NCBI GenBank assembly: GCA_964342765.1
Contig: CAYFFS010000013.1
Coordinates: 4,125 to 24,124 of the forward strand
Origin: an uncultured Nitrososphaerales archaeon
GTDB taxonomy: Archaea > Thermoproteota > Nitrososphaeria > Conexivisphaerales > Conexivisphaeraceae
Length of the DNA stretch: 20,000 nucleotides
Reading direction: 5' to 3'
Shown here: positions 5,229-20,000 of the stretch, piece by piece
Layout: every line of letters begins with the position of its first letter
Numbering within the stretch: position 1 is the first letter of the stretch
Made by a program: the position numbers and the translations under genes
The notes under the pieces: model-generated
What the model was told of the DNA's origin: nothing
Databases searched by the model: none
What the model saw: only the letters and a program-made list of their open reading frames with translations

Positions 5229-5253
5229 TGCCTCCTCCCTCAAATTTGGATGC

Positions 5254-5313: not shown

Positions 5314-5595
5314 ATGGGCGACGAGGACAGGGCGGTGATAATGGTCCTGGGGGCCGACCGCATAGGGATAGTCGCCGGGATAGCCCAGGCCCTGGCGGAG
5401 GCAAACGCGAACATAGTGGACCTGGCTTCCACGAAGATGGGCGACCTCTTCGTCATGGTGCTCCTGGCCGACCTCTCGAGCTCCAAGGAGGATCTCCCAT
5501 CCCTCAAGGCGAGGCTCGAGGCGAGGGGGAGGGAGCTGGGGGTCCAGGTGGCCGTTTACCATTATAATATATTCAAGGTAATGCACAGGGTGTGA
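5314..5595 (+). CDS. ACT-domain protein (UPF0237-like)
   Basis: This 93-aa protein begins AVIMVLGADRIGIVAGIAQALAEANANIVDLASTKMGDLFVMVLLADLS, a single ACT fold pattern. It lies 3 nt upstream of a UPF0210-type gene, which is the usual partner arrangement. Confidence 0.8.
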   Translation: MGDEDRAVIMVLGADRIGIVAGIAQALAEANANIVDLASTKMGDLFVMVLLADLSSSKEDLPSLKARLEARGRELGVQVAVYHYNIFKVMHRV

Positions 5596-5598
5596 GGG

Positions 5599-6987
5599 AT
5601 GTCCTCTAGGATAGATCTGGAGGAGATCCTGGAGACCGTCGACATGCTGGTGTACAGGCACCTGAACATAAGGGCGGTCACGCTCGGGCTCAACGTGATG
5701 CCCTTCGCCTCGGGCGATCCCGAGGAGCTCAGGAGGGGGATCTCGTCCGCCATCAGGTCCGTGGCCCCCCGCCTCGTGGACGCGGTCGAGGAGGTCGGCG
5801 CGCGCTACGGCGTCGAGATAGTCAACAGGAGGCTGGCGCTGACCCCCATAGCGCTGGTCGCCTCCCCCATGGTCCGCGCGGTGGGTAGCGCCGCCTCGAG
5901 GGAGCTCGTGGGCCTGGCGCGCGAGATCGACGGGGCGGCCGCGGACGCCGGGATAGACATGGTGGGCGGATACGGGGCGTTGGTCCAGAAGGGGGAGTCG
6001 CAGTCGGACCTGGCCCTGGAGGAGAGCATACCCGAGGCGCTGGCCGACACGTCGCGCCTGTGCTCCTTCGTCAACGTGGCCGACAGCCGCTCGGGGATAA
6101 ACCTGGATGCGGTCCTCAGGATGGGCCGCGTGATATCCCGCGCGGCGGAGCTGTCGCCTGGGGGAAAGGGGGAGTCGTGCGCCAGGCTCATGGTGCTGGC
6201 CAACGCGCCGGACGACAACCCGTTCATGGCAGGGGGGTTCCACGGGGTTGGCTCCAAGGACATGGTGATCAACGTGGGGATAAGCGGCCCGGCGGTGCTC
6301 CTGGCGGCCATCAAGGGCGCGGCGGGGGCAGGCGTCGCGGAGCTGGCCGAGGTCATAAAGCGCGTCGCCTTCAAGATAACCAGGGTGGGGGAGCTCGTGG
6401 GCAGGGAGGTCGCGTCCCGCGTGGGCGCCGAGTTCGGAGCGGTGGACATATCCCTGGCGCCGGCCCCGGCCGAGGGCGAAAGCGTCGCGGAGGTCCTGGA
6501 GGCCATAGGGCTTGAGGCCGTCGGGCTGCCGGGCACGGTCGGCGCGATGATGTTGCTCACCGACTCCCTCAGGAAGGGAGGGGCTATGGCGGCCTCGAGG
6601 ACCGGCGGCTTCAGCGGCGTGATGACCCCCATCTCGGAGGACCTGGGGATGGCCAGGAGGGCCGCCGAGGGCACCCTCGGCATCTGGGCGCTGCTGGCGA
6701 TGAGCGCCGTCTCCGCCGTGGGGACCGACATGGTGCCCGTGCCAGGGGACACCCCTCCGGAGGTCCTGTCCTCCATAATACTTGACCAGGTGGCCATAGG
6801 AGTAGCGCTGGGGAAGCCCGTGGGCGTCAGGCTCCTTCCGGTCCCCGGCGCCAGGCCGGGCGACAGGGTGGAGCTCGGAGGCCTCTTCGGCTCGGGGGTC
6901 GTCCTCGACGTGCCCCGCAGGGGGGCCTCCGGCCTGCTCTCGCGCGGCGGCAGGATGCCGCCTCCTCTGGCCAGCTTAAGGGGATAG
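5599..6987 (+). CDS. UPF0210/DUF711-family protein (function unknown)
   Basis: This is a 462-aa Ala/Gly-rich soluble protein. The N-terminus ILETVDMLVYRHLNIRAVTLGLNV, the length and the coupling to the ACT protein fit my recollection of the UPF0210 family. Its ATG lies 3 nt after the ACT stop codon. Confidence 0.7.
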   Translation: MSSRIDLEEILETVDMLVYRHLNIRAVTLGLNVMPFASGDPEELRRGISSAIRSVAPRLVDAVEEVGARYGVEIVNRRLALTPIALVASPMVRAVGSAASRELVGLAREIDGAAADAGIDMVGGYGALVQKGESQSDLALEESIPEALADTSRLCSFVNVADSRSGINLDAVLRMGRVISRAAELSPGGKGESCARLMVLANAPDDNPFMAGGFHGVGSKDMVINVGISGPAVLLAAIKGAAGAGVAELAEVIKRVAFKITRVGELVGREVASRVGAEFGAVDISLAPAPAEGESVAEVLEAIGLEAVGLPGTVGAMMLLTDSLRKGGAMAASRTGGFSGVMTPISEDLGMARRAAEGTLGIWALLAMSAVSAVGTDMVPVPGDTPPEVLSSIILDQVAIGVALGKPVGVRLLPVPGARPGDRVELGGLFGSGVVLDVPRRGASGLLSRGGRMPPPLASLRG

Positions 6988-7293
6988 GCGCGCCGTGCTG
7001 GCCGTAGCCCTCCTTCTGTTCTAGGCGGGATCGGGCTAAGAGGCCCACCCGGGCCTCGCCGGGGGCGTTCATAGGCCCAGCTCGGCCTTGCTCCGCGCGG
7101 GTCGGCCGTTTCACCCTCCCCGACGCCTCCTCCGGGGTTGCCCCCCATCACCGACATAGCGCGTCGGGGGGTCCCGTTTCTCTTCCGTTGCCGGCGATCT
7201 CTCGCCGCGCCTCGCGGCGCCGCGCCCCCCGCTGGAGGGAGGAGCTTCCCCGGGAGATCCCCGTGGCCCGCCCGCCAGCTCGGCGCGCCGAGA
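6984..7293 (-). ncRNA. rnpB: RNase P RNA (archaeal type A-like, ~305 nt)
   Basis: All elements are read on the minus strand.
- P1: GGCGCGCCGAGCUGGC (7289-7274) pairs with GCCAGCACGGCGCGCC (7002-6987), giving 15 bp and one A.A mismatch.
- P2: GGGCGGG (7273-7267) pairs with CCCGCCU (7029-7023).
- CR-I/P4 5' strand: GGGGAAGCUCCUCCC (7251-7237).
- CR-V/P4 3' strand: ACAGAAGGAGGGCUA (7019-7005). The P4 pairing is AGC(U)CCUCC/GGAGGGCU, which keeps the universal bulged U.
- S-domain motifs: GGGUGAAACGG (7116-7106) and GGAGCAAGGCC (7094-7084).
- CCCGGGUGGGCCUCUUAGCCCG (7053-7032) resembles the E. coli M1 sequence CCCGGGUAGGCUGCUUGAGCC.
The ends are approximate (+/-5 nt). Confidence 0.85.
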
Positions 7294-7618: not shown

Positions 7619-8941
7619 TTGCCGGTGGCTCACATAGGGATAGACGACACCGACTCCAACGAGCTCGGCATGTGCACGACTTACATAGGGGCAGTCCTAG
7701 ACGAGAGGCTCAGGGCCCTAGGGTTCGCGAGCGCCGGGGAGCCTAGGCTGGTCAGGCTGAACCCCGCCAACCCCACGAAGACCAGGGGGAACGGCGCCGT
7801 TCACCTGAGGTACCACGTTCGCGGGAGGGAGGAGCTGCCGATGATCCTGAAGGAGGCCGAGGACGTCGTAGCGCGCCTGGCCGCGCTCGGGGATCCAAAG
7901 GCGGATCCCGGCATCGTAGCGATACAGTCGGACGGAAGGCCCCCGGAGGCCCTCTCGGGCTTCTACTGGTCCGCGCTGAGGGGGATAGTTAGCATCGGGC
8001 AGGCGCTCGACCTGATAGTCAGGCTGGGCGGGGTGGCCAGCTGGTTCAAGGAGGGGCGCGGCGTCATAGGGGCGCTCGCCGCGATTGGGGCGCCGGAGGA
8101 GGAGACCAGGATGTACGAGCTGCTGGCATATCGCCCGCCGATCCCGCTGAAGGGCCCGCGCGCCGTGGACGAGGAATCGGTTCGCCTGGCGGACCTGGAG
8201 ACCTGGCCTCTCACGTACGATAACTACGATTGGTACTACATGGAGGCGCTCGTGGCCCCCCACGGGCCCGATCCCGTGCTCCTTGGGATAAGGGGTCCTG
8301 ACAGGTCGTCCCTGTTCAGGGCCTACGACCTCATAAGGGTCGAGGATCGCGTGGAGAGGGTAGCGCTCTACAGAACCAACCACGGCTCGGGATCCCACGT
8401 GGTGGACGTGGGCGGGGTGAGGGACCTGAGGCCCTACACAACCGTCAGGCTCGAGGGGCGCGTAAGCGCCAGGCCGTGGGTTGGCCCTGGATCCCACGCT
8501 TTCTTCGAGCTGGAGGATGCCTACGGCGACCGGATAAGGGTGGCAGCATATGAGCCTACGAAGCACTTCAGGCGCATAGTGCTCTCCCTTGAGCCCGGGG
8601 ATCGCGTGAGGGTCGTTGGATCCTATCGCCCTCGCCCGCCCGAGCCGCCAACGATAAACCTGGAGTCGATGGAGGTCCTGGACCTGGTCAGCGTTTACCG
8701 CAGGGCAGCCCCCACGTGTCCAAGGTGCGGCCACCGCATGGAGAGCGCCGGCCTTGGAAAGGGCTACAGGTGTCCGGCCTGCGGCTACGCTGACGCCGGC
8801 CTAGAACCCACCCGCGTCCGCGTCCCCAGGAGGCTCGTGCGCGGCCAGTTCACGCCCCCTCCGAGGGCGCACAGGCACCTGACGCGCCCGCCCGAGGCCT
8901 ACCTATGGGAGAGGAGGCCGGCCTGTGGCGTGGAGGATTAG
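7619..8941 (+). CDS. tiaS: tRNA(Ile2) 2-agmatinylcytidine synthetase TiaS
   Basis: The translation is collinear with my memory of A. fulgidus TiaS. Shared motifs are HIGIDDTDS..GMCTTY, RLNPANPTKTRGNGAV, GRGVIGALAAIGA, LLGIRGP, TNHGSG, AAYEPTKHFR, INLES, the zinc ribbon CPRCGHRMESAGLGKGYRCPACG, and PPRAHRHLTRP. The start is either TTG 7619 or GVG 7625, 7-13 nt after the previous stop. Confidence 0.9.
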   Translation: MPVAHIGIDDTDSNELGMCTTYIGAVLDERLRALGFASAGEPRLVRLNPANPTKTRGNGAVHLRYHVRGREELPMILKEAEDVVARLAALGDPKADPGIVAIQSDGRPPEALSGFYWSALRGIVSIGQALDLIVRLGGVASWFKEGRGVIGALAAIGAPEEETRMYELLAYRPPIPLKGPRAVDEESVRLADLETWPLTYDNYDWYYMEALVAPHGPDPVLLGIRGPDRSSLFRAYDLIRVEDRVERVALYRTNHGSGSHVVDVGGVRDLRPYTTVRLEGRVSARPWVGPGSHAFFELEDAYGDRIRVAAYEPTKHFRRIVLSLEPGDRVRVVGSYRPRPPEPPTINLESMEVLDLVSVYRRAAPTCPRCGHRMESAGLGKGYRCPACGYADAGLEPTRVRVPRRLVRGQFTPPPRAHRHLTRPPEAYLWERRPACGVED

Positions 8942-9114
8942 CGAGAGGGCGCCGGCACCGCCGCTTCGCGAGGGCTCGCGCACCTCACTAACACGGCGGC
9001 GGCGACGGGTTTCACTTCCGGGATCGGGCGAGACCGGGTGGGTCCCCGTCGCTATGGCCGGCTGGCCATTCCCCTTCATCGGGACAATAAATCCTTTTCT
9101 GCTCGATGAGGAAT

Positions 9115-10374
9115 TTACTTTATCACTGATTTAACTATTTCTAAAAATTCTTCATCCGTTATGTTCGACTTCTTCTCCTCCGCGCGGGCCTTCACCTTCT
9201 CCAGTATCTCCTTCATCTGCTCCTTGGTGGCGCTAATCCCCAGCTCGCCGAGCTTCCACTCTATCGTGTGCAGGCCGGACTTCTTCCCGAGGAGGACCCC
9301 GTGCCTGTTGCCCACCATCTCGGGCAGGTACGCCTCGGATCCAAGGTGGTACTTCAGCCATCCAGCTATGGAGATTCCAGCCTCCCTCGTGAACACCCTG
9401 TCCCCGACCACGGGCTTGTTCTGGGCCAGCCTCATGCCGCTGTAGCGCTGCACGAGGTCGGAGAGCTCCTTCAGCTTCTCGAACCTCACTTTGACGTTGA
9501 CGCCGTAGAGGAGCCTGAGGGCCAGCGCCACCTCCTCGAAGCTGGCGTTCCCGGCCCTCTCGCCGAGCCCGTTGACCGATGTGTGGACGACCGAGGCGCC
9601 GTTGGCGAGGCCCGCGATGGCCGTAGCGACGGCGAGCCCGAAGTCGTTATGGGTGTGGACCTCCACGGTCTGCGGCACGGAGCGCTTAACGATCGACACG
9701 AACTTTCCATATGCCTCCGGCGACGTGCAGCCGAAGGTGTCGGCTAAGACTATTGAGTCGTAGTGCGCCGCGGCGTCGACCTCCCTGAACAGCCTGATCA
9801 GGAACTCAGGGTCGGCCCTCGTCGAGTCTACGCCGAAGAGCGCCACCCATAGCCCATGGGCCTTGGCGTAGCTGACCACGTCTATGGATTTCTCTATCAC
9901 CTGCTCGTACGTCCATTCGAACTGCTTCAACTTTGGGATCCCAACGGGCGCCTCAGTTATCACGCCGGAGACGTCCGCCCTGAGCGCCGCGTCGACGTCC
10001 TCCCTCAGCATCCTCGAGAAGGCTATCACCTTGGCCTTCAGCCCCAGGTGGGCTATCTCGCGCACCGCCTCGAAGTCCTCCCTGGACACGACCGGCATGC
10101 CCGCCTCTATCCTCTGCACGCCGACCTCGTCCAGCATCCTCGCTATCTCCACCTTCTCGTTCTTCCTGAAGACCACCCCTGGCGTCTGCTCGCCGTCCCT
10201 CAAGGTGACGTCGTGGAAGACGACCTCCTCGGGGAAGTGCAGGCGGGACAGCACCTCGCGGTCGTAGTTGAAGTGGCTCACCCAGAACTTATCGGAGACC
10301 CATCTTCCCTTCTCGAACGACTCCCCGTCCAGGTCAAACCCGTCCGTGCGCACGGCCCCTCGGCTCACGCCCAA
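9115..10374 (-). CDS. HMGL-like (DRE-TIM) Claisen-condensing enzyme of the 2-isopropylmalate/homocitrate/citramalate synthase family
   Basis: - Motifs: VFHDVTLRDGEQTPGVVF, VEVHTHNDFGLAVATAIAGLANGASVVHTSVNGLGERAGNASFEEVALAL.
- There is no LeuA-type C-terminal regulatory domain.
- There is an unusual ~55-aa N-terminal extension.
- The start is uncertain: TTG 10374, GTG 10368 or GTG 10353.
- It lies 27 nt downstream of the thioesterase stop, so the two genes are probably co-transcribed. Confidence 0.8.
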   Translation of the reverse strand: MGVSRGAVRTDGFDLDGESFEKGRWVSDKFWVSHFNYDREVLSRLHFPEEVVFHDVTLRDGEQTPGVVFRKNEKVEIARMLDEVGVQRIEAGMPVVSREDFEAVREIAHLGLKAKVIAFSRMLREDVDAALRADVSGVITEAPVGIPKLKQFEWTYEQVIEKSIDVVSYAKAHGLWVALFGVDSTRADPEFLIRLFREVDAAAHYDSIVLADTFGCTSPEAYGKFVSIVKRSVPQTVEVHTHNDFGLAVATAIAGLANGASVVHTSVNGLGERAGNASFEEVALALRLLYGVNVKVRFEKLKELSDLVQRYSGMRLAQNKPVVGDRVFTREAGISIAGWLKYHLGSEAYLPEMVGNRHGVLLGKKSGLHTIEWKLGELGISATKEQMKEILEKVKARAEEKKSNITDEEFLEIVKSVIK

Positions 10375-10401
10375 AAGATAACCATTTTTGTCCTTGGCGC
10401 G

Positions 10402-10878
10402 CTACCTGAATATGAACCACGTGCCGAGTGCGCGTGCGCACACGTTGCCCTCCGAGTCCAGGACCTCCCCCTCCACCACGGCCGTGTGAGCCCCTAGGTG
10501 CACAACCCTTCCGATTACCCTGAAGGGGGACTTCAGGAGGGGCCTGATGAAGTTCACCTTGAGCTCCAGGGTTGACTGGTCGCTGCTGGTGTTGACGCTC
10601 ATCACCGCGAGGCCGCACGTCGTGTCGAGGGCGGTCATTATGACGCCGCCGTGCACATGCGGCCTTCCGCGCCTTCCCGAGGCCATGTGGCTGAAGGGGA
10701 ACTCGAGCTCGGCGCGCCCATCCCCCACCTCGATGACCTTGAAGCCCAGCGCGCCGTAGATCCCCGTCTCCTCGGAGAAGTACCTGTTCACCTCCTCGGC
10801 CACGTTCTTCCCCTCCGATCTCCAGCGCTCGAAGAGCTGCCTGAATCCGCCGGCGGCCCTCACCTCGTCGTCGAACAT
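10402..10878 (-). CDS. PaaI/YbdB-type hot-dog fold thioesterase
   Basis: GRAELEFPFSHMASGRRGRPHVHGGVIMTALDTTCGLAVMSV...STLELKVNFIRPL...VVHLGAHTAVVEGEVLDSEGNVCARALGTWF shows the HGG...lD.. pattern and the central-helix/long-sheet order of the PaaI family. Confidence 0.85.
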   Translation of the reverse strand: MFDDEVRAAGGFRQLFERWRSEGKNVAEEVNRYFSEETGIYGALGFKVIEVGDGRAELEFPFSHMASGRRGRPHVHGGVIMTALDTTCGLAVMSVNTSSDQSTLELKVNFIRPLLKSPFRVIGRVVHLGAHTAVVEGEVLDSEGNVCARALGTWFIFR

Positions 10879-10900
10879 TGCGGCGCGATGTCCGTGAGCT

Positions 10901-10908
10901 GAAATAAG
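10901..10908 (-). promoter_or_regulatory. TATA-like box (minus strand CTTATTTC) for the PaaI thioesterase/synthase unit
   Basis: It is centred 27 nt upstream of ATG 10878. Confidence 0.4.
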
Positions 10909-10939
10909 GGTTTACGGCTGGCCTCGACCTGCCGGCGGC

Positions 10940-10947
10940 AAACGTTA
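10940..10947 (+). promoter_or_regulatory. Promoter element AAACGTTA upstream of the MaoC-like gene
   Basis: The motif begins 35 nt upstream of ATG 10975. An identical 8-mer sits at identical spacing before the FAH gene. Confidence 0.4.
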
Positions 10948-10974
10948 TCTAGGGGGCTTGGGGCATCAGCTCCA

Positions 10975-11430
10975 ATGTTCTTCGAGGACTTCGAGCTTGG
11001 GCGCGAGTACGTGACGTATGGCAGGACCTTGACGGAGGCCGACGTCGTAATATTCGCCTCGATGACCGGCGCCGTAAACCCCCTCTTCCTCGACGAGGAA
11101 TACGCCAAGAGGACGAGGTTCGGGGGCCGGATAGCGCCCGGCCTCCTGACTTTGAGCGTCGTGCTGGGGCTAATCTATCAGCTCCCCCAGGGGTTCTTCA
11201 CCGAGGGATTCGTGGCGCTTTTGGAGGCGCGCGGCTCCTTCCTGGCCCCCGTTAAGGCCGGCGACACGCTCTCTGCGCGCGTCAGGGTCTCGGAGAAGAA
11301 GGAGGTGAGCGGCGGAAGGGGCATAGTGGTCCTGTCATATCAGGCGTTCAACCAGGGCGGGCAAAAGGTCTCGGAGGGCGAGTTCCGCATAATGGTCTCC
11401 AGGCGCCAGACAGGGGCCTCCACATCTTAG
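10975..11430 (+). CDS. MaoC-like hot-dog fold protein (R-hydratase family) with a degenerate hydratase-2 motif
   Basis: TLTEADVVIFASMTGAVNPLFLDEEYAKRTRFGGRIAPGLLTLS aligns to the MaoC core. The motif [YF]-x-[LVIG]-[STGC]-G-D-x-N-P-[LIV]-H reads F-A-S-M-T-G-A-V-N-P-L-F here. Confidence 0.8.
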   Translation: MFFEDFELGREYVTYGRTLTEADVVIFASMTGAVNPLFLDEEYAKRTRFGGRIAPGLLTLSVVLGLIYQLPQGFFTEGFVALLEARGSFLAPVKAGDTLSARVRVSEKKEVSGGRGIVVLSYQAFNQGGQKVSEGEFRIMVSRRQTGASTS

Positions 11431-11451
11431 GCGGGCGCTTCACCACCTGAA

Positions 11452-11459
11452 AAACGTTA
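11452..11459 (+). promoter_or_regulatory. Promoter element AAACGTTA upstream of the FAH-family gene
   Basis: The motif begins 35 nt upstream of ATG 11487, within gaaAAACGTTAAAAcc. Confidence 0.4.
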
Positions 11460-11486
11460 AAACCCTCAGCCGTCTGCTTCAACGCA

Positions 11487-12509
11487 ATGAAGCTGGTCAC
11501 CTACCGCAATCCGTACACGATGGAGGACAGGTCCGGCATCCTCTATGGGGATTACGTGATAGACCTGAACTCGACCTACGCCGCCATACTCTACAGGGAG
11601 GGGATAACGGAGGGCGCCTACAGGATCGCGGACGGCCTGCTCCCAACTAGCCTGCTAGAGGTCCTGAGGGGCGGCGGGCGCTCCCTGAACGCCGCCCAGG
11701 AGGTGCTGACCTTCGCGAAGGAACAGATAGACAAGGGAAAGACGATAGAGGGCCCGCGCGGGGAGAAGGCGTCCTTCCGCCTGAGCGAGGTGAAGCTGAG
11801 GGCCCCCCTGAGGCCTGGCAAGATAATACACACGGCCGGCAACTTCAGGGAGCACGCGCGGGAGGCCGAGAAGGCGGGCTGGGAGTTCCCCATACCTCAG
11901 TGGATATCATTCCTCAAGAACCCCGACGCGGTGGTGGGCCCCGACGAGCCCGTCATCTACCCCAGCTACACCAAGGAGCTCGACTACGAGCTGGAGATGG
12001 GCATAATAATAGGCAAGAAGTGCAAGGAGGTTACGCCGGAGGAGGCGGTCGACTGCATAGCTGGCTATACCGTCTTCAACGACATAACGGCGAGGGACAT
12101 CCAGAGGATAGAGATGAAGAATGGCCTATTGAACCTAGGCAAGAACATGGACACCTTCGCAATACTAGGGCCCTGCATAGCCCTGAAGGACGAGATCCCG
12201 GATCCCCACAACCTCAGGATGGAGCTCAGGGTGAACGGCGAGCCGAGGCAGCAGTCAGGGACCTGGAACCTGTCGGTGAAGGTGCCCGAGATAGTCTCGC
12301 GCTACTCCGTGATAACCCTGTACCCGGGCGACATGATCTCGACCGGCACGGTATCCGGAGTCGCCGCCTTCAGGGAGGATCCCTTCAAGTACTACCTGAA
12401 ACCGGGCGACGTCATAGAGTCGGAGATAGAGAGGATAGGGGTCGTCAGGAATCCGGTCGTGGCGGGCCCGCCCGGGAGAATTAAGCCGCCCATAAGCGAG
12501 TCTAAGTGA
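11487..12509 (+). CDS. Fumarylacetoacetate hydrolase (FAH) family protein with N-terminal extension domain
   Basis: KIIHTAGNFREHA, ELDYELEMGIIIGKKCKEVTPEEAVDCIAGYTVFNDITARDIQ (the metal-binding E..E..D pattern) and MISTGTVSGV are typical of the FAH fold. Confidence 0.85.
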   Translation: MKLVTYRNPYTMEDRSGILYGDYVIDLNSTYAAILYREGITEGAYRIADGLLPTSLLEVLRGGGRSLNAAQEVLTFAKEQIDKGKTIEGPRGEKASFRLSEVKLRAPLRPGKIIHTAGNFREHAREAEKAGWEFPIPQWISFLKNPDAVVGPDEPVIYPSYTKELDYELEMGIIIGKKCKEVTPEEAVDCIAGYTVFNDITARDIQRIEMKNGLLNLGKNMDTFAILGPCIALKDEIPDPHNLRMELRVNGEPRQQSGTWNLSVKVPEIVSRYSVITLYPGDMISTGTVSGVAAFREDPFKYYLKPGDVIESEIERIGVVRNPVVAGPPGRIKPPISESK

Positions 12510-12618
12510 ATTCTGTCCAATATAACCATAAAATTTTCAAAATAGTTCTAAAACAACTGCCTTTTTGGCGCCATACTTCAGTTCCTTGCGCCGCAATGCG
12601 CCCATTATCTTTGAACTC

Positions 12619-12628
12619 TTATATAATT
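12619..12628 (+). promoter_or_regulatory. TATA box (cTTATATAATTcc) for the cyclase-family gene
   Basis: It is centred ~25 nt upstream of ATG 12648, in the only strongly AT-rich intergenic region of the window. Confidence 0.5.
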
Positions 12629-12647
12629 CCAAGGCGCAACTTGCACG

Positions 12648-13463
12648 ATGAGCGTCCTTGAGGATTTCCTTAGGCTGGCCTCCCAGATGAAGATCTACGA
12701 CCTGAGCCAGTACTACTTCAACGGCATGCCGGTGCACCCGGAGGATCCTCCATTCCATATGTGGATCTATAGATATCACGAGAACACCATCAAGATGTTC
12801 GAGAAGGTGGTGCCGGGCCTCGGCTTCGCTGACTCCATGGAGATAGTCATAACCAGCATGCACGCGGGGACCCACTTCGACTCCTTCTGCCACATGTCTA
12901 GGAACGGCCTGCTGAAGGACGGCGTGCGGGCGGCCGACATAGAGAGGTTCGACGGCTACACGAAGTACGGCGTGGACGAGGCGCCCATATTCGCCAGGAG
13001 GGGGGTGCTAATCGACGTGCCCGCTTCCAAGGGGCTGGACATATTGCCCGAGCGCTACGCAATAACCCCGGAGGACCTGGAGAACGCCCTCAAGTGGGAG
13101 GGCGTGAGCGTGGAAAGGGGGGACGTGGTGCTCATAAGGACGGGCTACTCCAGGTTCTTCCAGAGCGACCCGGACGCTTACATGCACAAGTTCGCCGGCA
13201 TGTCGCCCGAGGCCACGCGCTGGATAGCGTCGAAGGGGCCCAGCCTCGTCGGCATAGATAACCTGGCCTTCGGCGTGCCCAAGCCGTTCGAGCAGCACCT
13301 GATATTGCTGGTCGACAACGGGATCTATCTGATGAAGAGCCTTTACCTGGAGGAGCTGGCGAAGGATCGGCAGTACCAGTCCTTCGTCGTCGTGGCGCCG
13401 CTGAAGATCAAGGGCGCCACCGGCAGCCTCATCAGGCCATTCGCGCTCGCGCCCCGCAGGTAA
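12648..13463 (+). CDS. Cyclase-family protein (kynurenine/aryl formamidase-like metal hydrolase)
   Basis: The HxGTHxDxxxH signature is present as MHAGTHFDSFCHM. The size (~270 aa) and IDNLAFG fit the putative cyclase family. Confidence 0.8.
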   Translation: MSVLEDFLRLASQMKIYDLSQYYFNGMPVHPEDPPFHMWIYRYHENTIKMFEKVVPGLGFADSMEIVITSMHAGTHFDSFCHMSRNGLLKDGVRAADIERFDGYTKYGVDEAPIFARRGVLIDVPASKGLDILPERYAITPEDLENALKWEGVSVERGDVVLIRTGYSRFFQSDPDAYMHKFAGMSPEATRWIASKGPSLVGIDNLAFGVPKPFEQHLILLVDNGIYLMKSLYLEELAKDRQYQSFVVVAPLKIKGATGSLIRPFALAPRR

Positions 13464-13545
13464 GCGTATCCTGTAGGGCTCCCAACTGAGGTGCGGTCGC
13501 CGCAACTAGAGTTCATTCCACTTTGTTCCACACAGTAAAATAATG

Positions 13546-13553
13546 TTTTTATA
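13546..13553 (+). promoter_or_regulatory. TATA box (TTTTTATA) for the ParB-like gene
   Basis: The context is aataatgTTTTTATAgag. It is centred ~27 nt upstream of in-frame GTG 13576 but only ~11 nt upstream of the track's TTG 13561. A leaderless start at 13576 is therefore plausible. Confidence 0.5.
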
Positions 13554-13560
13554 GAGCGGA

Positions 13561-14418
13561 TTGGCGACAGGCGCAGTGATCTGGCAGGGCGGCGTCCTGC
13601 AGGAACTGGACATCAGCAAGCTCCGCCCAATGGACCTGCCTTTCCGCGCGCGCCAGGAAGGCGTGGAGGAGCTGGCCTCCTCGATAGCGGAGAAGGGGCT
13701 CCTTCACCCTTTGATAGTTAGGCCGAAGGATGGGTACTACGAGGTCGTGGCGGGGAACAGGAGGCTGGCCGCCCTTAAGCTGCTAGGGAGAAGGAAGGCG
13801 CCTTGCCTGGTGGTCGACATGGACGATAAATCGGCCTACGAGCTGGCTCTCGTTGAGAACATCCAGAGGAAGAACCTGAATCCAATAGAGGAGGCCATGG
13901 CCTTCAAGGCGTACATAGAAACCTATGGCTACGGGTCGGAGAGCGAGCTGGCCAGGAAGATAGGGAAGAGCCAGGAGTACGTCAGCAGGAGGCTTCAGCT
14001 GCTCAAGCTCCCCCAGAAGGTGCAGGAGGAAGTTATGCGCCGGCGCATAGCTCCGAGCGTGGCGGCGGAGCTGGCGACGATCGATGATCCGAAGAAGATA
14101 GAGGAGCTGGCCAACCTCATAGTCGAGAAGGGGCTGAAGCGCGAACACGTGAGGCGCGTGATAAGGGAGGAGAAGGGATCCTGGAGGGTCGATGACCCCT
14201 ATGAGCGCAGGCGCCGCCTCATAGACAGGGTCCTCAACAAGTGCATAACCTCGCTCAAGGTAGCTCTTGTCAACATAGACGACGCAATAGAGGACGTGAA
14301 GGACGACTGGCTGCTCTACGAGATGTTGATGGAGCACCGCTCGCGCCTTCACGCGCAGATAGACGACCTCATAAAGCTGAGGAAGCGCGTGCTCGAGATG
14401 GACGAGGCGATCGCGTAG
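13561..14418 (+). CDS. ParB/Spo0J-type protein (ParB N-terminal CTP-binding-like domain + HTH + helical C-terminal region)
   Basis: The translation is collinear with bacterial Spo0J/ParB.
- HPLIVRPKDGYYEVVAGNRRLAALKLLG corresponds to the GERRxRA box.
- ALVENIQRKNLNPIEEA corresponds to the ENLQRxDLNPxEEA box.
- ELARKIGKSQEYVSRRLQLLKLPQKVQ is the HTH.
The true start may be GTG 13576. Confidence 0.85.
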   Translation: MATGAVIWQGGVLQELDISKLRPMDLPFRARQEGVEELASSIAEKGLLHPLIVRPKDGYYEVVAGNRRLAALKLLGRRKAPCLVVDMDDKSAYELALVENIQRKNLNPIEEAMAFKAYIETYGYGSESELARKIGKSQEYVSRRLQLLKLPQKVQEEVMRRRIAPSVAAELATIDDPKKIEELANLIVEKGLKREHVRRVIREEKGSWRVDDPYERRRRLIDRVLNKCITSLKVALVNIDDAIEDVKDDWLLYEMLMEHRSRLHAQIDDLIKLRKRVLEMDEAIA

Positions 14419-14433
14419 CCAGGCCAGTACAGA

Positions 14434-14441
14434 GATATATT
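14434..14441 (+). promoter_or_regulatory. TATA box (GATATATT) for the SDR gene, bracketed by a 5-bp inverted repeat CAGAG/CTCTG (14430-14450)
   Basis: It is centred 27 nt upstream of ATG 14465. Confidence 0.5.
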
Positions 14442-14464
14442 GAACCTCTGGCGTAGGGCTCACA

Positions 14465-15307
14465 ATGAGTTGGGGTGCCCTGGAGGAGGTTCCAGAGGAG
14501 GTTCCCCCCGAGGTCCATAGGAGGAACGTGACGCCCCCGTGCAACAGGTTCGCTAACCAGAAGGTCCTTGTCACCGGCGCGGGGCGCGGCCTGGGCAGCC
14601 ACATCGCCCTGGCGTTCGCCAGGGACGGGGCCGACGTGGCAGTGCACTACAACACGTCGGCGGAGGGCGCCGAGAGGGTGGCGGAGGAGATCAGGAAGAT
14701 GGGGAGGGACTCGTTCACCGTGCAGGCGGACGTAACCAAGTGGGACGACGTGAGGAGGATGGCGGACGAGATTTGGAAGAGGTGGGGGAGGCTGGACATA
14801 TTGGTGCACCAGGTCGGCGAGATGGTGACCGGCCAGATGAGCTGGAGGGAGATGAAGACCGAGGCCGACGTCAGGAAGGCAATAGACGTCGACGCCCTGG
14901 GCAGCCTCCTCGTCATACACGAGATAGGCCGCAGGATGTACGACCTGCAGAAGTACGGCTCGATAGTCGCGATGGCCTCAAACGTCCTGACGACGGGCAG
15001 CCCTAGGGCGCCTCAGTACGCCGCCGGGAAGTTCGGCGTCGTAGGCGTCGTGAAGTCCTACGCCAACGCGTTCGCGCCCTGGGTCCGCGTTAACGCCGTC
15101 GCGCCGGGCTACATAGAGACCGAGGCGACAAAGGCCAGGCCGGACTGGCCTAAGAGGAGGAAGTTCGTCCTCCAGAACACGCCCCTGAAGAGGATCTGCC
15201 AGGTGGAGGACGTGATACCGGTCATAATGTTCCTCGCGTCCGGCGACTCGGCGTTCATAACGGGCCACACGATATATATAGATGGCGGGTTCACGATGCC
15301 GCACTGA
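14465..15307 (+). CDS. Short-chain dehydrogenase/reductase (FabG-like 3-oxoacyl/3-hydroxyacyl reductase family)
   Basis: The cofactor motif is KVLVTGAGRGLGSHIALAFARDGADVAV (TGxxxGxG) and the catalytic motif is Ser...YAAGK. The C-terminal ITGHTIYIDGG is also present. There is a ~33-aa N-terminal extension. Confidence 0.85.
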   Translation: MSWGALEEVPEEVPPEVHRRNVTPPCNRFANQKVLVTGAGRGLGSHIALAFARDGADVAVHYNTSAEGAERVAEEIRKMGRDSFTVQADVTKWDDVRRMADEIWKRWGRLDILVHQVGEMVTGQMSWREMKTEADVRKAIDVDALGSLLVIHEIGRRMYDLQKYGSIVAMASNVLTTGSPRAPQYAAGKFGVVGVVKSYANAFAPWVRVNAVAPGYIETEATKARPDWPKRRKFVLQNTPLKRICQVEDVIPVIMFLASGDSAFITGHTIYIDGGFTMPH

Positions 15308-15313
15308 GCGATC

Positions 15314-16096
15314 CTACCTGTTCTTCCAGCTGGGCTTCCTCTTCTCGAGGAAGGCCCTGGCGCCCTCCTTCTGATCCTCGGTCGAGAAGCACTTGGCGAA
15401 GAGCTCCGACTCCACGCGCATTCCCTCATCGAACGGCCTCTGGTAGCTAGCGTTGACCGCGCGCTTGGCGAACGACAGTATCAGCGGGCTCTTGGACCTC
15501 AGGTCCTCAAGGTACTTCCTGACGACGTTCACGAGCTCCTCCCTGGGGACCGCCCTGTTTATCAGGCCAAGCGCCTCGGCCTCCTTGGCCGTCAGCGTCC
15601 TTCCAGTGAATATCAACTCCTTAGCCATCTTCACGCCGACGTGCCTCGGAAGCCTCTGGGTGCCTCCGGCCCCCGGTATTAGGCCCACGTTGATCTCGGT
15701 CTGCCCAAGCAGGGCGTCCTCGGCGGCCACCGCTATGTCGCTCGCCAACACCAGCTCTAGCCCGCCTCCGAACGCGTGCCCGTTGACCATTGCTATGACG
15801 GGCTTCGACAGGTTCTCTATCCTATCGACGAGCCCCTTGGTTATAACCAGGTAGGAGCGGGCCTCCTCCTCGTCCATCGTAAGGAACATCCTCAGGTCCG
15901 CGCCCGCGCAGAACGACTTGTCGCCGGCGCCCGTCAGCACGACAGCGAAGACCGAGGGATCCCTTTCCGCCTCCTCGAGCGCGCTCAGGATCTCCTCCTT
16001 CGTCTTGACGTCGAGCGCGTTCCTCACCTCCGGCCTGTTTATGGTTATCCAGGCCGCGCCATCCTTCACCTCGTAGATTATGTTGGAGTAGACCAT
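15314..16096 (-). CDS. Enoyl-CoA hydratase/isomerase (crotonase) family
   Basis: ITINRPEVRNALD, FCAGADL, NGHAFGGGLELVLASD and QTEINVGLIPGAGGTQRLPR are present, and both catalytic Glu positions are conserved. The gene is convergent with the SDR gene across a 6-nt gap. Confidence 0.9.
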   Translation of the reverse strand: MVYSNIIYEVKDGAAWITINRPEVRNALDVKTKEEILSALEEAERDPSVFAVVLTGAGDKSFCAGADLRMFLTMDEEEARSYLVITKGLVDRIENLSKPVIAMVNGHAFGGGLELVLASDIAVAAEDALLGQTEINVGLIPGAGGTQRLPRHVGVKMAKELIFTGRTLTAKEAEALGLINRAVPREELVNVVRKYLEDLRSKSPLILSFAKRAVNASYQRPFDEGMRVESELFAKCFSTEDQKEGARAFLEKRKPSWKNR

Positions 16097-16117
16097 CGAG
16101 CAGCTCAGCGATGGGAA

Positions 16118-16125
16118 GGATATGG
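16118..16125 (-). promoter_or_regulatory. Weak TATA-like element (minus strand CCATATCC) for the crotonase gene
   Basis: It is centred ~26 nt upstream of ATG 16096. The match to a TATA box is poor. Confidence 0.3.
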
Positions 16126-16151
16126 GGTTTCCCCTCCCCCTTGCGCTTCAG

Positions 16152-16160
16152 ATTTTTATA
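16152..16160 (+). promoter_or_regulatory. TATA box (cagATTTTTATAtcgg) for the Mo-hydroxylase/thioesterase unit
   Basis: It is centred ~29 nt upstream of ATG 16185. Confidence 0.5.
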
Positions 16161-16184
16161 TCGGTCCTCGGCACTTAAGCTAGG

Positions 16185-18557
16185 ATGGCTGTACAGGTTG
16201 TGGAGCAGCTCGAGCTCCAGAAATATAAGTGGGTCGGCGCATCTATAAAGAGGAAGGAGGATGCTGAGCTTATAAGGGGAAAGGGAACCTATACGGACGA
16301 CGTAAGGCTGCCGGGCGCCGTCTACGTGGCGTTCGTCAGGAGCCCCTACGCCCACGCGAGGATAAAGAGGATAGACGTGTCCAAGGCGCTGAGCCATCCG
16401 AAGGTGGTGGGCGTCCTGACGCCGGACGAGGCCGTGCCCCTGCACTCCTGGATGGAATTCCCCGGTATGAGGCAGGTGCCCCGCACGTCGTTGGCGGTCG
16501 GCAAGGTCAGGTTCCAGGGGGAGCCCGTCGTGGCGATAGCGGCGACCGACAGGTACTCCGCCGAGGACGCCGTTCAGCTGGTGGACGTGGAGTACGAGCC
16601 CCTCCCGCCGGTGGTCGACGCAGAGAAGGCGCTCGAGCCAGGGGCCCCCCTGCTCTACGAGGAGTGGGGGGACAACGTGATCTACCATGGGAAGGCGTCG
16701 TTCGGCGACGTTGAGGGCGCCTTCTCCCGCGCCGACCTAGTCGTCGAGGGCACGCTCATAAGCAACAGGCACTCGCCGACGCCCCTGGAGCCGCGCGCGA
16801 TAACAGCGCACTACGATACCGTGAAGGACGTCTTCAACATATGGGTTACCACCCAGTTCCCACACGTCTTCAAGACGTACATCTCCCAGGTCCTCAAGTT
16901 CCCCGAGAACAAGATAAGGGTGATAGCTAAGAGGGTTGGCGGGGGCTTCGGCCCCAAGTCCCACGTATACCCTGACGACGTGGCGGTGCTCCAGCTCGCG
17001 CTCAAGCTCAAGAGGCCGGTCAAGTGGGTGGAGACGAGGACCGAGAACCTGCAGGTGACGGGGCACGCCAGGGACTGGAAGATATGGTACAGGGGCGCGT
17101 TCACGAAGGACGGAAAGCTGCTCGCTGTCAGCGTTAAGGGCATAGCCGACTTCGGCGTCTACGGGGCCTTCTGGACGGAGATACAGCCGGCGCTCGTCGC
17201 GCAGGCCCAGACGCCTGGCCCCTACAAGATGCAGGCGTACGAGTTCGAGCTCTACTGCGTCGCCACGAACAAGGCCCCCTACTCCGCGCACAGGGGGTTC
17301 GGGAGGCCCACGGCGGCGCTCATAATGGAGCGCATAATGGACGCGGCTGCCCGCAAGCTCGGGCTGGATCCTGTTGAGATAAGGAGGCGCAACCTGATCA
17401 GCCGCGACGAGATGCCCTATCGCCAGGTCACCAACATAATCTACGACAGCGGCGACTACCCGAGGGCCCTGGAGACCGCCCTCCGCTCGTTCGACTACTG
17501 GGGCTGGAGGAAGAAGCAGGAGGAGCTCAGGAAGCAGGGCAGGTACATAGGGATAGGGGTCTCGACATACGTGGAGTACACGGCGCCCTCCTCCAAGAGG
17601 TTGTCCGAGGGGCTGGGATGGAAGGTAGGGGGCTACGACATGGTGAGGCTCAGGGTAGAGCCGACCGGCAAGGTGAAGTTCTTCACTGGGCAGTCGACCC
17701 AGGGCATGAGCCACGAGACGATATTCGCTCAGATAGTGGCCGAGGAGCTGCAGGTGCACGTGGACGACGTGACGGTTGTGGAGGGCGACACGGAGGACAC
17801 GCCCTACAGCTACGGCGCCTGGGCCAGCAGGGCCACCGTCGTCGTGGGAGGGGCCGCCGTGAAGGCGGCCAGGATGATAAGGGACAAGATGATCAAGATA
17901 GCGGCTTTCAACCTCGGCGTGGAGCCGTCGGACGTCGACCTGGCGCGCGGCTGGTTCTACGTGAAGTCGGATCCCTCGAGGAGGATATCGTTCTCCGAGG
18001 TGGCCAGGATAGCCTACCAGGAGGTCCACAGGATACCCATGGACCTAGAGCCCGGGCTCGAGGTCGTCACGACGTATGAGCCCCAGGTGTACACGACGAC
18101 CAGCCATGGATGGCACTTCGTGGTTGTCGAGGTAGACCCGGAGACGGGCAAGGTGGACATACTGAAGTACTACGTCCTCGAGGACGCAGGCATATCGGTG
18201 AACCCGATGACGATGCACGGGCAGACGCACGGCGCCGTAGCCCACGAGATAGGAGGCGTCATGTACGAGGAGCTCAGGTACGACGAGAACGGCAACCTGC
18301 TCAACTCGACGTTCGTGGACTACCTGGTGCCGACGGCTCTCGAGGTGCCTAACATAGAGGTGGAGCACATAGAGACGCCGAGCCCGCAGCTCGGCGGCTG
18401 GAAGGGGATGGGCGAGGGAGGGTCGATCGGCGCTCCTCCCGCGCTCTTCAGCGCCATAGAGGACGCGCTGTCCCCGCTGGGCGTAAAGCTCGATCGCGCC
18501 CCCCTGACGCCTGAGAACATCCTGCGCGCGATAAAGTCCGCCAGGGCATCGCAGTAG
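16185..18557 (+). CDS. Molybdopterin-binding large subunit of a xanthine dehydrogenase/aldehyde oxidase/CoxL-family hydroxylase
   Basis: - 790 aa.
- The N-terminus is KRKEDAELIRGKGTYTDDVRLPGAVYVAFVRSPYAHARI.
- SAHRGFGRP lies in the active-site loop region.
- The C-terminal GMGEGGSIGAPPA (GxGE) contains the catalytic Glu.
- The loop is neither VAYRCSFR (form I CODH) nor AYRGAGR (form II). Confidence 0.85.
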   Translation: MAVQVVEQLELQKYKWVGASIKRKEDAELIRGKGTYTDDVRLPGAVYVAFVRSPYAHARIKRIDVSKALSHPKVVGVLTPDEAVPLHSWMEFPGMRQVPRTSLAVGKVRFQGEPVVAIAATDRYSAEDAVQLVDVEYEPLPPVVDAEKALEPGAPLLYEEWGDNVIYHGKASFGDVEGAFSRADLVVEGTLISNRHSPTPLEPRAITAHYDTVKDVFNIWVTTQFPHVFKTYISQVLKFPENKIRVIAKRVGGGFGPKSHVYPDDVAVLQLALKLKRPVKWVETRTENLQVTGHARDWKIWYRGAFTKDGKLLAVSVKGIADFGVYGAFWTEIQPALVAQAQTPGPYKMQAYEFELYCVATNKAPYSAHRGFGRPTAALIMERIMDAAARKLGLDPVEIRRRNLISRDEMPYRQVTNIIYDSGDYPRALETALRSFDYWGWRKKQEELRKQGRYIGIGVSTYVEYTAPSSKRLSEGLGWKVGGYDMVRLRVEPTGKVKFFTGQSTQGMSHETIFAQIVAEELQVHVDDVTVVEGDTEDTPYSYGAWASRATVVVGGAAVKAARMIRDKMIKIAAFNLGVEPSDVDLARGWFYVKSDPSRRISFSEVARIAYQEVHRIPMDLEPGLEVVTTYEPQVYTTTSHGWHFVVVEVDPETGKVDILKYYVLEDAGISVNPMTMHGQTHGAVAHEIGGVMYEELRYDENGNLLNSTFVDYLVPTALEVPNIEVEHIETPSPQLGGWKGMGEGGSIGAPPALFSAIEDALSPLGVKLDRAPLTPENILRAIKSARASQ

Positions 18558-18561
18558 CGGC

Positions 18562-18990
18562 GTGATCCACTTGGAGGGCCGCTTCAGCACCGTGGTATCC
18601 TTCGACGACACGGACTGCAGCAGGAGGGTCCACTTCTCGAAGTACTCGATATGGATAGATAGGGCAATACAGGACCTATTCAGGAAGGCAGGCCTTGAGT
18701 TCCTGCCCGATGGAACTCTGCGCCGCGTGGAGGGAGGAGAGGTGGTCGCCTTCGCCATCGGCGAGTACTGGGCCAGGATGGAGAGGCCATCGAAGCTCGG
18801 CGATTCCCTGGATGTCGTAGTTCATCCGCACGAGGTCAGGCCGCGCGTGGTTGTCTTCGAGGGCGCGGTCATCGATAGATCCGACGGCTCCGTCGTCGCG
18901 CGCGGGAGGATAACCATGGTCCACATAGATCCTGAGACAGGCCGCTCCAAGGAGATGCCGAGCTGGCTCAGGGATCTCCTGTCGCGCTAA
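18562..18990 (+). CDS. 4HBT/YbgC-type hot-dog fold acyl-CoA thioesterase
   Basis: VVSFDDTDCSRRVHFSKYSIWIDRAIQDLFRKAGLEF matches the v.y.DtD..g.V....Y pattern, including the catalytic Asp. The GTG start lies 4 nt after the Mo-subunit stop. Confidence 0.8.
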   Translation: MIHLEGRFSTVVSFDDTDCSRRVHFSKYSIWIDRAIQDLFRKAGLEFLPDGTLRRVEGGEVVAFAIGEYWARMERPSKLGDSLDVVVHPHEVRPRVVVFEGAVIDRSDGSVVARGRITMVHIDPETGRSKEMPSWLRDLLSR

Positions 18991-19003
18991 ATCGTTATTA
19001 AAC
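18990..19003 (+). promoter_or_regulatory. Promoter element AATCGTTATTAAAC upstream of the acyl-CoA dehydrogenase gene
   Basis: AATCGTTA begins 36 nt upstream of GTG 19026 and is related to the AAACGTTA boxes at 10940 and 11452. Confidence 0.4.
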
Positions 19004-19025
19004 GACAGAGGCCCGGGGATCCCCC

Positions 19026-20000
19026 GTGGACTTCGCGGAGTCCGACGAGCACGCCCTCCTGAGGAAGGGCATGGCGGATCTCGTCAAGCAGTTCCCCAGG
19101 GAGTACTGGCGCCAGAAGGATCAGGCGGAGGAGTTTCCCCAGGAATATTGGGACGCCCTGGCCAAGCAGGGATGGCTAGGGCTCCTGGTCCCCGAGGAAT
19201 ACGGAGGGGCGGGGCTCAACATGTACGAGGCGCACATAGCTATCTACGAGGCGGCCAGGAACGGCGCCGGGGTCCCCGGAGGGGACCTGCTGATGAGGAC
19301 CTACATGTTCGGGACCTATCCGATAAGGCAGTTCGGCAGCCCCGCCCTCAAGGAGAAATGGCTTCCCAGGATAGCGGAGGGGAAGGCGCTCTTCAGCATA
19401 GGGCACACGGAGCCCGGGGCCGGCGTCAACACTTTCGACATAGAGACCTACGCCGAGCGCAGGGCCGGCGAGTTCGTGATAAACGGCCAGAAGATCTGGA
19501 TGACGCTGGCCCACAGGGCTGACGCGATACTTCTGGTGGCGAGGACGAAGCGCAAGGAGGAGGTCAAGGAGAAGAGCGAGGGCCTCACGCTTTTCCTGGT
19601 GGACACGCGCGAGTCGAAGGTCAGGACGGCGCGCCTGCCGGCGTCCGTCATGAGGCCCCTGGGCGAGAACGTCGTGTACTTCGAGGACACCGCGGTGCCC
19701 GAGGAGAACGTGATAGGCGAGGTGGACCGCGGCTGGCGCTACCTGGTGAACGTGTTCAACGCGGAGCGCCTTGGCACGGCGTCCGTCGCGGCCGGTGCCG
19801 GCGAATACGTGCTAGACCTCGCCGCGGAGTACGCCAGGACCAGGAACGTGTTCGGCAGGCCCATTGGATCAAACCAGGCGATAAGCTTCCCGCTTGCGGA
19901 GATACGCATGTACCTGGAGGCCGCGAAGCTCCTGCTTCAGAAGGCGGCCTGGCGCTTCGATCGGGGCGAGGATCCGTCGGTCGAGGGCAACATGGCTGCC
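19026..20000 (+). CDS. Acyl-CoA dehydrogenase family flavoprotein; 3'-truncated by window edge
   Basis: This gene is not in the ORF track because it has no stop within the window.
- Frame 3 is open from the stop at 18999-19001 to nt 20000, and the first start codon is GTG 19026.
- My translation reads VDFAESDEHALLRKGMADLVKQFPREYW...QGWLGLLVPEEYGGAGLNMYEAHIAIYE...FSIGHTEPGAGVNTFDIETYAERRAGEFVINGQKIWMTLAHRADAILLVART...ARTRNVFGRPIGSNQAISFPLAEI.
- These are classic ACAD motifs (TEPGAG, GxKxW[IM]T, R.vFGrPI..nQ). Confidence 0.9.
   Translation, partial: MDFAESDEHALLRKGMADLVKQFPREYWRQKDQAEEFPQEYWDALAKQGWLGLLVPEEYGGAGLNMYEAHIAIYEAARNGAGVPGGDLLMRTYMFGTYPIRQFGSPALKEKWLPRIAEGKALFSIGHTEPGAGVNTFDIETYAERRAGEFVINGQKIWMTLAHRADAILLVARTKRKEEVKEKSEGLTLFLVDTRESKVRTARLPASVMRPLGENVVYFEDTAVPEENVIGEVDRGWRYLVNVFNAERLGTASVAAGAGEYVLDLAAEYARTRNVFGRPIGSNQAISFPLAEIRMYLEAAKLLLQKAAWRFDRGEDPSVEGNMAA

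Follow-up and report, generated by a model that had tools for sequence, protein, structure and literature searches.

Several described catabolic systems resemble parts of a gene cluster that we analysed in an uncultured Nitrososphaerales archaeon (Conexivisphaeraceae): the 2-furoyl-coenzyme A (CoA) route encoded by hmfABCDE, the pyridine pathway of nicotine degradation, the routes for indole-3-acetate, the retro-aldol cleavage of steroid side chains, and the Claisen-type synthases of the DRE-TIM fold. The cluster lies in a window of 20,000 nucleotides (nt; the whole stretch analysed, positions 4125-24124 of contig C13) from a 1.22-Mb genome, G000, with a GC content of 65%. Positions 9115-20000 of the window hold 11 genes, which form the left half of an island of more than 20 catabolic genes that continues past nt 20000 on the same contig. 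Our analysis shows that the gene set is real, conserved and, as far as the searches reach, undescribed, and that it is built from known enzyme families; no description of it was found in the literature searched, the coverage of which was incomplete. The set works like the hmf, nicotine (nic) and anaerobic indoleacetate (iaa) routes but, by the features tested, is a member of none.

Like hmfABCDE, the island combines a CoA ligase, a xanthine-oxidase-family hydroxylase of the kind acting on a thioester, a CoxG-like protein and a crotonase, and one of its molybdenum (Mo) hydroxylase large subunits, MoL2, is sister to the HmfA clade. However, it has no orthologue of HmfA, HmfD or HmfE, and it additionally contains two or three large subunits, an acyl-CoA dehydrogenase (ACAD), an aldolase with a DUF35 protein, a cyclase, an M20 amidohydrolase, an FAH-family protein, a short-chain dehydrogenase/reductase (SDR) and an enzyme resembling isopropylmalate synthase (IPMS). 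The hmf references, from Cupriavidus and the Geobacillus pHTA426 locus, were identified by locus layout, not by assay. The Arthrobacter nicotine pathway (Ndh, Kdh and the Pkc/HpoH cyclase) likewise has two Mo large subunits, one apart from the medium and small subunits, beside a PF04199 cyclase (PMC6214936). In contrast, the large subunits and cyclases of the two loci share only ~35% and 33% identity, and the nicotine pathway needs a flavin monooxygenase and O2 and proceeds without CoA chemistry, unlike the route proposed here.

The intermediates described for indole-3-acetate degradation, by the anaerobic iaa route of Aromatoleum or the aerobic iad route, could be reached by a ligase, Mo hydroxylase, ACAD, hydratase, retro-aldolase and cyclase-family hydrolase (PMC9613470, PMC6221969). 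The aerobic route leads from indole-3-acetate to dioxindole-3-acetate, isatin and anthranilate (PMC9613470, PMC6221969), and the enzymes of anaerobic indole breakdown have been called unknown (PMC6221969). The island has no Rieske dioxygenase, and its cyclase, which is not an isatin hydrolase orthologue, is only distantly related to the isatin hydrolases of solved structure (isatin hydrolase B matched at E 6e-6). The anaerobic iaa components include a hydantoinase and a B12 mutase. Neither was present in the islands of G000, G002 and G004, a result confined to the islands, as no genome-wide search was made. A further lead is the isonicotinate route of Mycobacterium INA1 via citrazyl-CoA, which reportedly combines two Mo hydroxylations with CoA activation and an O2-free hydrolytic ring opening.

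Gene content and conservation of the island

All 11 open reading frames at positions 9115-20000 were present in the order and on the strands first listed, and the families given in the initial annotation were borne out: 10 of the 11 proteins matched Pfam families above the cut-off, and the ACAD was recognized by NCBIfam. The equivalog cut-off for a named enzyme was reached by none of the 11. For the genes of IPMS-like and ParB-like proteins, GTG at 10353 and GTG at 13576 are the likely starts, preferred because a TATA-like box then sits ~20-22 nt upstream; the former agrees with the start of the G004 orthologue. Genes beyond the window are numbered on locus L001, whose coordinate equals the window position minus 8875.

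9115..10353, minus strand: IPMS/homocitrate synthase (HCS)-like DRE-TIM enzyme, 412 aa (Pfam); proposed lyase or aldolase
10402..10878, minus strand: PaaI-type hot-dog thioesterase (Pfam)
10975..11430, plus strand: MaoC-like (R)-hydratase (Pfam); near the SDR orthologue in 11 loci
11487..12509, plus strand: FAH-family hydrolase or decarboxylase; core gene, usually adjoining the IPMS-like gene
12648..13463, plus strand: metal-dependent amidohydrolase of the cyclase family, with an HxGTHxD motif; core gene, proposed to open a lactam ring
13576..14418, plus strand: ParB-like protein (Pfam); outside the conserved set
14465..15307, plus strand: SDR of a distinct clade (GSPRAPQY motif); core gene
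15314..16096, minus strand: crotonase ECH1, both catalytic Glu residues kept; hydratase-like
16185..18557, plus strand: Mo-hydroxylase large subunit MoL1; core gene, archaea-only clade
18562..18990, plus strand: 4HBT-type thioesterase (Pfam)
19026..20000, plus strand: ACAD, ending 195 nt beyond the window (L001 10151-11320); core gene
L001 11378-12259, plus strand: CoxM-like FAD subunit
L001 12256-12759, plus strand: CoxS-like 2Fe-2S subunit
L001 12766-15219, plus strand: second Mo large subunit, MoL2
L001 15223-15669, plus strand: CoxG-like protein
L001 15705-16499, minus strand: crotonase ECH2
L001 16566-17756, plus strand: cysteine-less thiolase-fold protein (YDDF motif)
L001 17758-18165, plus strand: DUF35-type OB-fold protein, assigned from Cys motifs and position, not Pfam
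L001 18217-end, plus strand: acyl-CoA synthetase (CoA ligase), continued on contig C62

Thus, the CoA ligase and the FAD and 2Fe-2S subunit genes, which the initial annotation proposed to look for beyond nt 20000, are present there. Exact 55-nt overlaps link C13 to C62 and C62 to C61, and these further contigs hold the end of the ligase gene and another Mo enzyme, the third, with large subunit MoL3. An M20 gene lies directly after an Fe-S/CCG protein gene on contig C46. In the complete 1.59-Mb genome G004, the island extends to EtfB, EtfA and the Fe-S/CCG protein on one side and to PaaK-like, pyrogallol-transhydroxylase-like, CaiB and second thiolase genes on the other. Within the island, no gene for an oxygenase was seen.

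Between the IPMS-like gene and the ligase, G002 and G004 have the same gene order, as do those fragments of G001, G005 and G006 that are available; the order is maintained throughout the genus. In the sister genus (G007), genes for an M20 peptidase and an aminotransferase accompany the Mo/ACAD/aldolase block, and the FAH-cyclase pair lies at another site. Reshuffled clusters were found in Caldarchaeales and in other archaea: SDR-M20-MoL1-MaoC-aminotransferase-ECH in archaeon HR01, MoL2-M20-MoL1-CoxS/G/M-cyclase-SDR in a Thaumarchaeota metagenome-assembled genome, and a nearly full set in G177; ACAD-MoL2-aldolase(-DUF35) is a conserved run. Among 92 loci, 86 of them with an SDR orthologue, the neighbours were FAH (31), MoL (30), M20 (26), IPMS-like (24), ECH (21) and cyclase (19) genes. 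The ACAD, crotonase and SDR had been grouped as a beta-oxidation-like set; all three are present, but the SDR accompanies FAH, IPMS-like, M20 and MoL1 genes rather than the ACAD, and the cleavage enzyme is retro-aldolase-like.

The clustering is not due to chance. The promoter-like box of their own that most genes carry and the lineage-specific ParB gene would suit a random juxtaposition of unrelated genes; however, this explanation, which we regard as hardly credible, is refuted by the synteny maintained across the genus and by the reshuffled clusters that recur in other orders and in bacteria. The neighbourhood comparison proposed in the initial annotation therefore upheld its suggestion of an unassigned catabolic set, as synteny is conserved and no enzyme compared has a characterised orthologue; a heterocyclic or aromatic acid is the most likely substrate. 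In contrast, the ParB-like gene, also listed in the cluster, is not in the conserved set. It is the only ParB-like gene of the genome, was found in Conexivisphaera alone, with no match in G007, G163 and G177 for the query used, and was rejected as a pathway gene; the protein is possibly a local regulator.

In an analysis of genome co-occurrence, eight markers (SDR, MoL1, cyclase, FAH, close IPMS-like, ECH2, ACAD and thiolase-like) were confined to the same 18 of 61 Caldarchaeales genomes, with all eight in 15, seven in 1 and six in 2, and none in 43. A weaker IPMS-like paralogue occurs in 3 of the 43 marker-negative genomes. The reshuffled physical linkage is stronger evidence than this co-occurrence. 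A class-wide SDR profile over 151 genomes matched in Conexivisphaera alone and was uninformative, and plasmid searches with SDR, FAH and IPMS-like proteins gave generic matches of at most 40% only.

The linkage data also bear on whether the island is a mosaic of two or three separate short pathways that are merely co-located: (A) ACAD-MoL2-aldolase-DUF35-ECH2, (B) SDR-M20-MoL1 and (C) FAH-IPMS-like. The three blocks often lie far apart in Caldarchaeales genomes (for example, G163), block C occurs with SDR and M20 in bacteria without Mo neighbours, and the SDR stands amid unrelated genes in G153-G155. We nevertheless consider a mosaic rather improbable, since the blocks combine variously in several lineages (G177, L038, L087, L107, L114 and Conexivisphaera) and show nearly the same presence pattern.

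In bacteria, FAH, IPMS-like and SDR genes occur together, sometimes with M20, M24 and ApbA-like genes. Operons of FAH, IPMS-like, transporter and SDR genes were observed at L064 (5269-9828), L135, L142 and L144. Some of them additionally contain M20 and M24 genes and two ApbA-like genes; these operons are an uncharacterised pathway in their own right.

A pyrogallol-transhydroxylase-like AthL/AthB pair adjoins the island in G004 (L025 8655-20000, equal to G004:C1:928655-940000) and in G002, with PaaK-like, CaiB and second thiolase/DUF35 genes as neighbours. In G000, three AthL-like paralogues lie on other contigs, among C30, C9, C25, C3 and C28.

Enzymes with altered active sites

In addition to LeuA, CimA and HCS, the genome encodes the IPMS-like protein as a fourth paralogue; a biosynthetic role is unlikely, as the other three are encoded at other sites. 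The protein resembles the Claisen-type DRE-TIM synthases (IPMS, HCS and citramalate synthase) in its fold, its DRE helix, its metal sites (LRDGEQ and HxH) and its subdomain II. A Glu/His pair activates acetyl-CoA in IPMS and HCS. In contrast, all aligned orthologues of the island enzyme have VD in place of ED on beta6, so that the Glu is lost, and RE(A/S/T)G in place of HxxGxH in subdomain I, so that the His is lost, and all gained an invariant Glu134 on beta5. These replacements suggest that the enzyme acts as a lyase or aldolase; alternatively, it may be a synthase using Glu134. The predicted fold agrees with the family, with residues 310-353, which include the altered His motif, at a predicted confidence (pLDDT) below 50, and the ESM Atlas gave nothing beyond the names of families. 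Some genomes have a further IPMS-like paralogue of greater distance (G005:C8:6786-7988; G198, G201 and G204; L181 181-1326), three of these genomes being without the module.

The thiolase-fold protein carries Gly in place of the nucleophilic Cys of thiolases, and its YDDF motif aligns with the Sal and Ltp2 motifs YDCY and YDHF, in which the Tyr of the YDxF/Y motif is the catalytic base for retro-aldol cleavage of 3-hydroxyacyl-CoA (PMC12329534). The steroid side-chain systems Sal-Shy and Ltp2-ChsH2 resemble the island in having an ACAD, a MaoC or crotonase, a DUF35 protein and a thiolase-fold aldolase with this motif, and the island protein shows the missing Cys, the motif Tyr and the DUF35 neighbour that mark these aldolases. 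They differ in that the third motif residue of the island protein is Asp, not Cys or His; at the position of the catalytic acid, it has Asp291 where Sal has Cys304, and there is no equivalent of Ltp2 Tyr344. Moreover, the island has no steroid ring genes, and its aldolase is set among Mo hydroxylases and amidohydrolases. The protein is likely to perform a retro-aldol step, not thiolysis, because of the motif, the adjoining DUF35 gene and the ACAD-MoL2 genes upstream in Caldarchaeales. Together, the IPMS-like clade and the YDDF aldolase are two new active-site variants, of interest whatever the substrate.

MoL1 and MoL2 contain a hammerhead domain, two Moco-binding domains and the KGxGE glutamate, and are accompanied by FAD and 2Fe-2S subunits, as in the xanthine-oxidase family. 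In a quick, midpoint-rooted IQ-TREE tree with near-duplicate rows left out, MoL1 formed an archaea-only clade (support 100; loop HRGFGRP), and MoL2 grouped with two Mesorhizobium plasmid subunits, whose locus holds an FAD monooxygenase and an amidohydrolase; this joint clade was sister to the HmfA-like proteins. The best solved-structure relatives of MoL1 include quinoline 2-oxidoreductase and ketone dehydrogenase. The CO dehydrogenase loops AYxCSFR and AYxGAGR are not present in the two proteins, which have AHRGFGR and SIRGFSR, and their CoxL scores (628 and 556 bits) fall below the equivalog cut-off of 991. Databases often name the Mo subunits of these archaea CO dehydrogenase. Identity to NdhL and KdhL is 32-36%, on separate branches. 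By scores and tree, neither subunit is HmfA, CoxL, NdhL, KdhL, QoxL or HcrA.

These comparisons do not support the analogies with furoyl-CoA and 4-hydroxybenzoyl-CoA enzymes that the initial annotation had drawn. A 2-furoyl-CoA (hmfABCDE) or 4-hydroxybenzoyl-CoA reductase route would fit the 44% identity of MoL2 to a Geobacillus HmfA-like protein, the ligase, CoxG and crotonases found as in an hmf-like locus, and HcrA as the best family match of MoL3. However, MoL1 and MoL2 both fall outside the HmfA clade (support 100), ECH1 and ECH2 are 36% and 30% identical to HmfE-like proteins and the ligase 30% to an HmfD-like protein, and MoL1, MoL2 and MoL3 score 451, 409 and 597 bits against the HcrA cut-off of 995. 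Genes of the class I benzoyl-CoA reductase family (PF06050, HGD-D), the only class searched, were found in none of five carrier genomes, including the complete G004, and the amidohydrolases would be superfluous. We therefore regard either route as very improbable.

MoL1 (16185-18557) and MoL2 (L001 12766-15219) share ~44-47% protein identity, yet exact DNA tracts of 51, 29, 39 and 23 nt were observed between them, and tracts of 23-62 nt occur at similar places in G002, G004 and G007. Such tracts point to gene conversion, possibly at the surfaces that bind subunits common to both proteins.

In the cyclase, the metal motif HxGTHxD of isatin hydrolase and kynurenine formamidase is conserved, and the protein scored 36 bits against the KynB equivalog cut-off of 223. 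Its closest annotated pathway relative found was the Arthrobacter nic-cluster cyclase; ring opening of hydroxypyridines has been proposed for that family (PMC6214936). The GGG oxyanion loop of ECH2 is three residues shorter through a deletion, and the protein is still 72-79% identical across orders.

Proposed route

On balance, we think it somewhat probable that the genes of the island serve a single route, dependent on CoA but not on O2, for the degradation of an N-heteroaromatic carboxylic acid that bears a short side chain. We infer every step from what was observed, namely gene content, families, conserved linkage and altered motifs. The ligase would first form the CoA thioester. MoL2 and MoL1, served by one common CoxM/CoxS/CoxG set, would then add water-derived oxygen beside the ring nitrogen to give a lactam; alternatively, they may oxidise an aldehyde intermediate. 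ACAD and ECH/MaoC enzymes would desaturate and hydrate the side chain, with ACAD electrons passing to the downstream ETF and Fe-S/CCG protein, after which the thiolase-fold protein with DUF35 would cleave the 3-hydroxyacyl-CoA by retro-aldol, releasing acetyl-CoA. The cyclase would hydrolyse the lactam, and the M20 amidohydrolase would take off the remaining N-acyl group. Finally, the SDR, FAH and IPMS-like (lyase or aldolase) enzymes would degrade the open-chain oxo/hydroxy acid, and the thioesterases would recycle CoA.

The substrate may be an acid of the pyridine type or of the indole type, with roughly the same likelihood. The sequence relatives of the cyclase and MoL2 suggest a pyridine-type ring, and the aminotransferase, 2-oxoacid dehydrogenase and PaaK-like genes that recur nearby suggest indole acids. 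In the indole version, indole-3-acetyl-CoA could be converted via oxindole and dioxindole-3-acetyl-CoA to isatin by these enzyme types, through intermediates that have been described (PMC9613470, PMC6221969). Five Caldarchaeales genomes and G007 carry the TrpB2 gene directly beside the module; this gene also occurs in module-negative genomes, is not adjacent in G168 and G183, and was not found in G004 with the query used. As a housekeeping gene with inconsistent adjacency, it is only a weak indole clue. More tentatively, and with some doubt, the island may represent a single undescribed O2-independent pathway for opening an N-heteroaromatic ring across several archaeal orders, possibly the missing anaerobic route from indole(acetate) via isatin to anthranilate or an anaerobic pyridine route, with a new DRE-TIM subfamily that lost the Claisen Glu/His pair and acts as a C-C lyase, and a new thiolase-fold aldolase of an Asp type.

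Several points weigh against the proposed ring-degrading route. The best NCBIfam match of MoL1 and MoL2 is archaeal glyceraldehyde dehydrogenase alpha (687 and 595 bits, below the cut-off of 790), and to judge by such matches aldehyde oxidation and ring hydroxylation appear equally plausible for the Mo enzymes. The catalytic subunits are only 28-44% identical to annotated references, and no enzyme has a characterised orthologue. The SDR was not found in the sister genus G007 (95% completeness), and the bacterial FAH/IPMS-like/SDR/M20 sets have no neighbouring Mo or ACAD genes, two such genomes lacking a MoL1 match above 45%. Furthermore, the E-value cut-offs for co-occurrence were hand-chosen, and the 18 positive genomes, which carry many more Mo-enzyme candidates overall, probably represent a few related genera, not independent events, so that co-occurrence overstates independence.

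The glyceraldehyde dehydrogenase match would also suit a route that shortens the side chains of aromatic amino acid-derived acids and keeps the ring, in which ACAD, hydratase and retro-aldolase would yield an aryl aldehyde and acetyl-CoA, the Mo enzymes would be aldehyde oxidoreductases, and thioesterases would free the aryl acid. The Sal product is an aldehyde plus acetyl-CoA, two thioesterases are present, class I benzoyl-CoA reductase genes were not found in the five carriers, and the genes that recur close by include those of an aminotransferase, a 2-oxoacid dehydrogenase or ferredoxin oxidoreductase, and PaaK-like proteins. However, the cyclase, M20, FAH, SDR and IPMS-like enzymes would be left unexplained, though they co-occur as tightly as the ACAD, and we consider this explanation unlikely.

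Conexivisphaera is a hot-spring archaeon. Like Caldarchaeales and relatives, it is among heterotrophs that have for the most part not been cultured, and little is known of the particular carbon sources they use. The gene set narrows the search to some ten enzymes that are inherited together and are intact in the complete G004 genome, so that the substrate could be found by induction and enzyme screens.

Transcription layout and flanking features

The initial annotation described the genes as leaderless and individually promoted. This holds for most of them: 7 of the 11 window genes passed a strict test (a run of at least 6 A/T ~21-34 nt upstream of the start codon), and the IPMS-like, MaoC and ECH1 genes have weaker boxes. 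In contrast, the 4HBT gene starts 4 nt past the MoL1 stop without a box and is probably co-transcribed with MoL1. The layout is common across the genome and was rejected as a special feature of the cluster; among 769 genes with an upstream gap of at least 30 nt, 337 passed the A/T test, compared with 93 in a control window, with the genome-wide A/T peak at -26 to -27.

The GC content of the island is 0.62 (window 9115-20000 with L001 11126-19651), compared with 0.65 for the genome. The left neighbour of the island in G000 differs from that in G002 and G004. To the left of the island edge lie a 118-nt tRNA match, probably intron-containing (1773-1890), an archaeal RNase P RNA (6993-7283) and, just upstream of the edge, a lone 5S rRNA (8949-9065). 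As read from the sequence only, the left half of the window resembles housekeeping genes (1899-2237, 2234-4165, 4077-5243, 5314-6987 and 7619-8941), namely those of a ferritin-like protein, an XPD-type helicase, a geranylgeranyl reductase, an ACT plus DUF711 pair and a TiaS-like protein.

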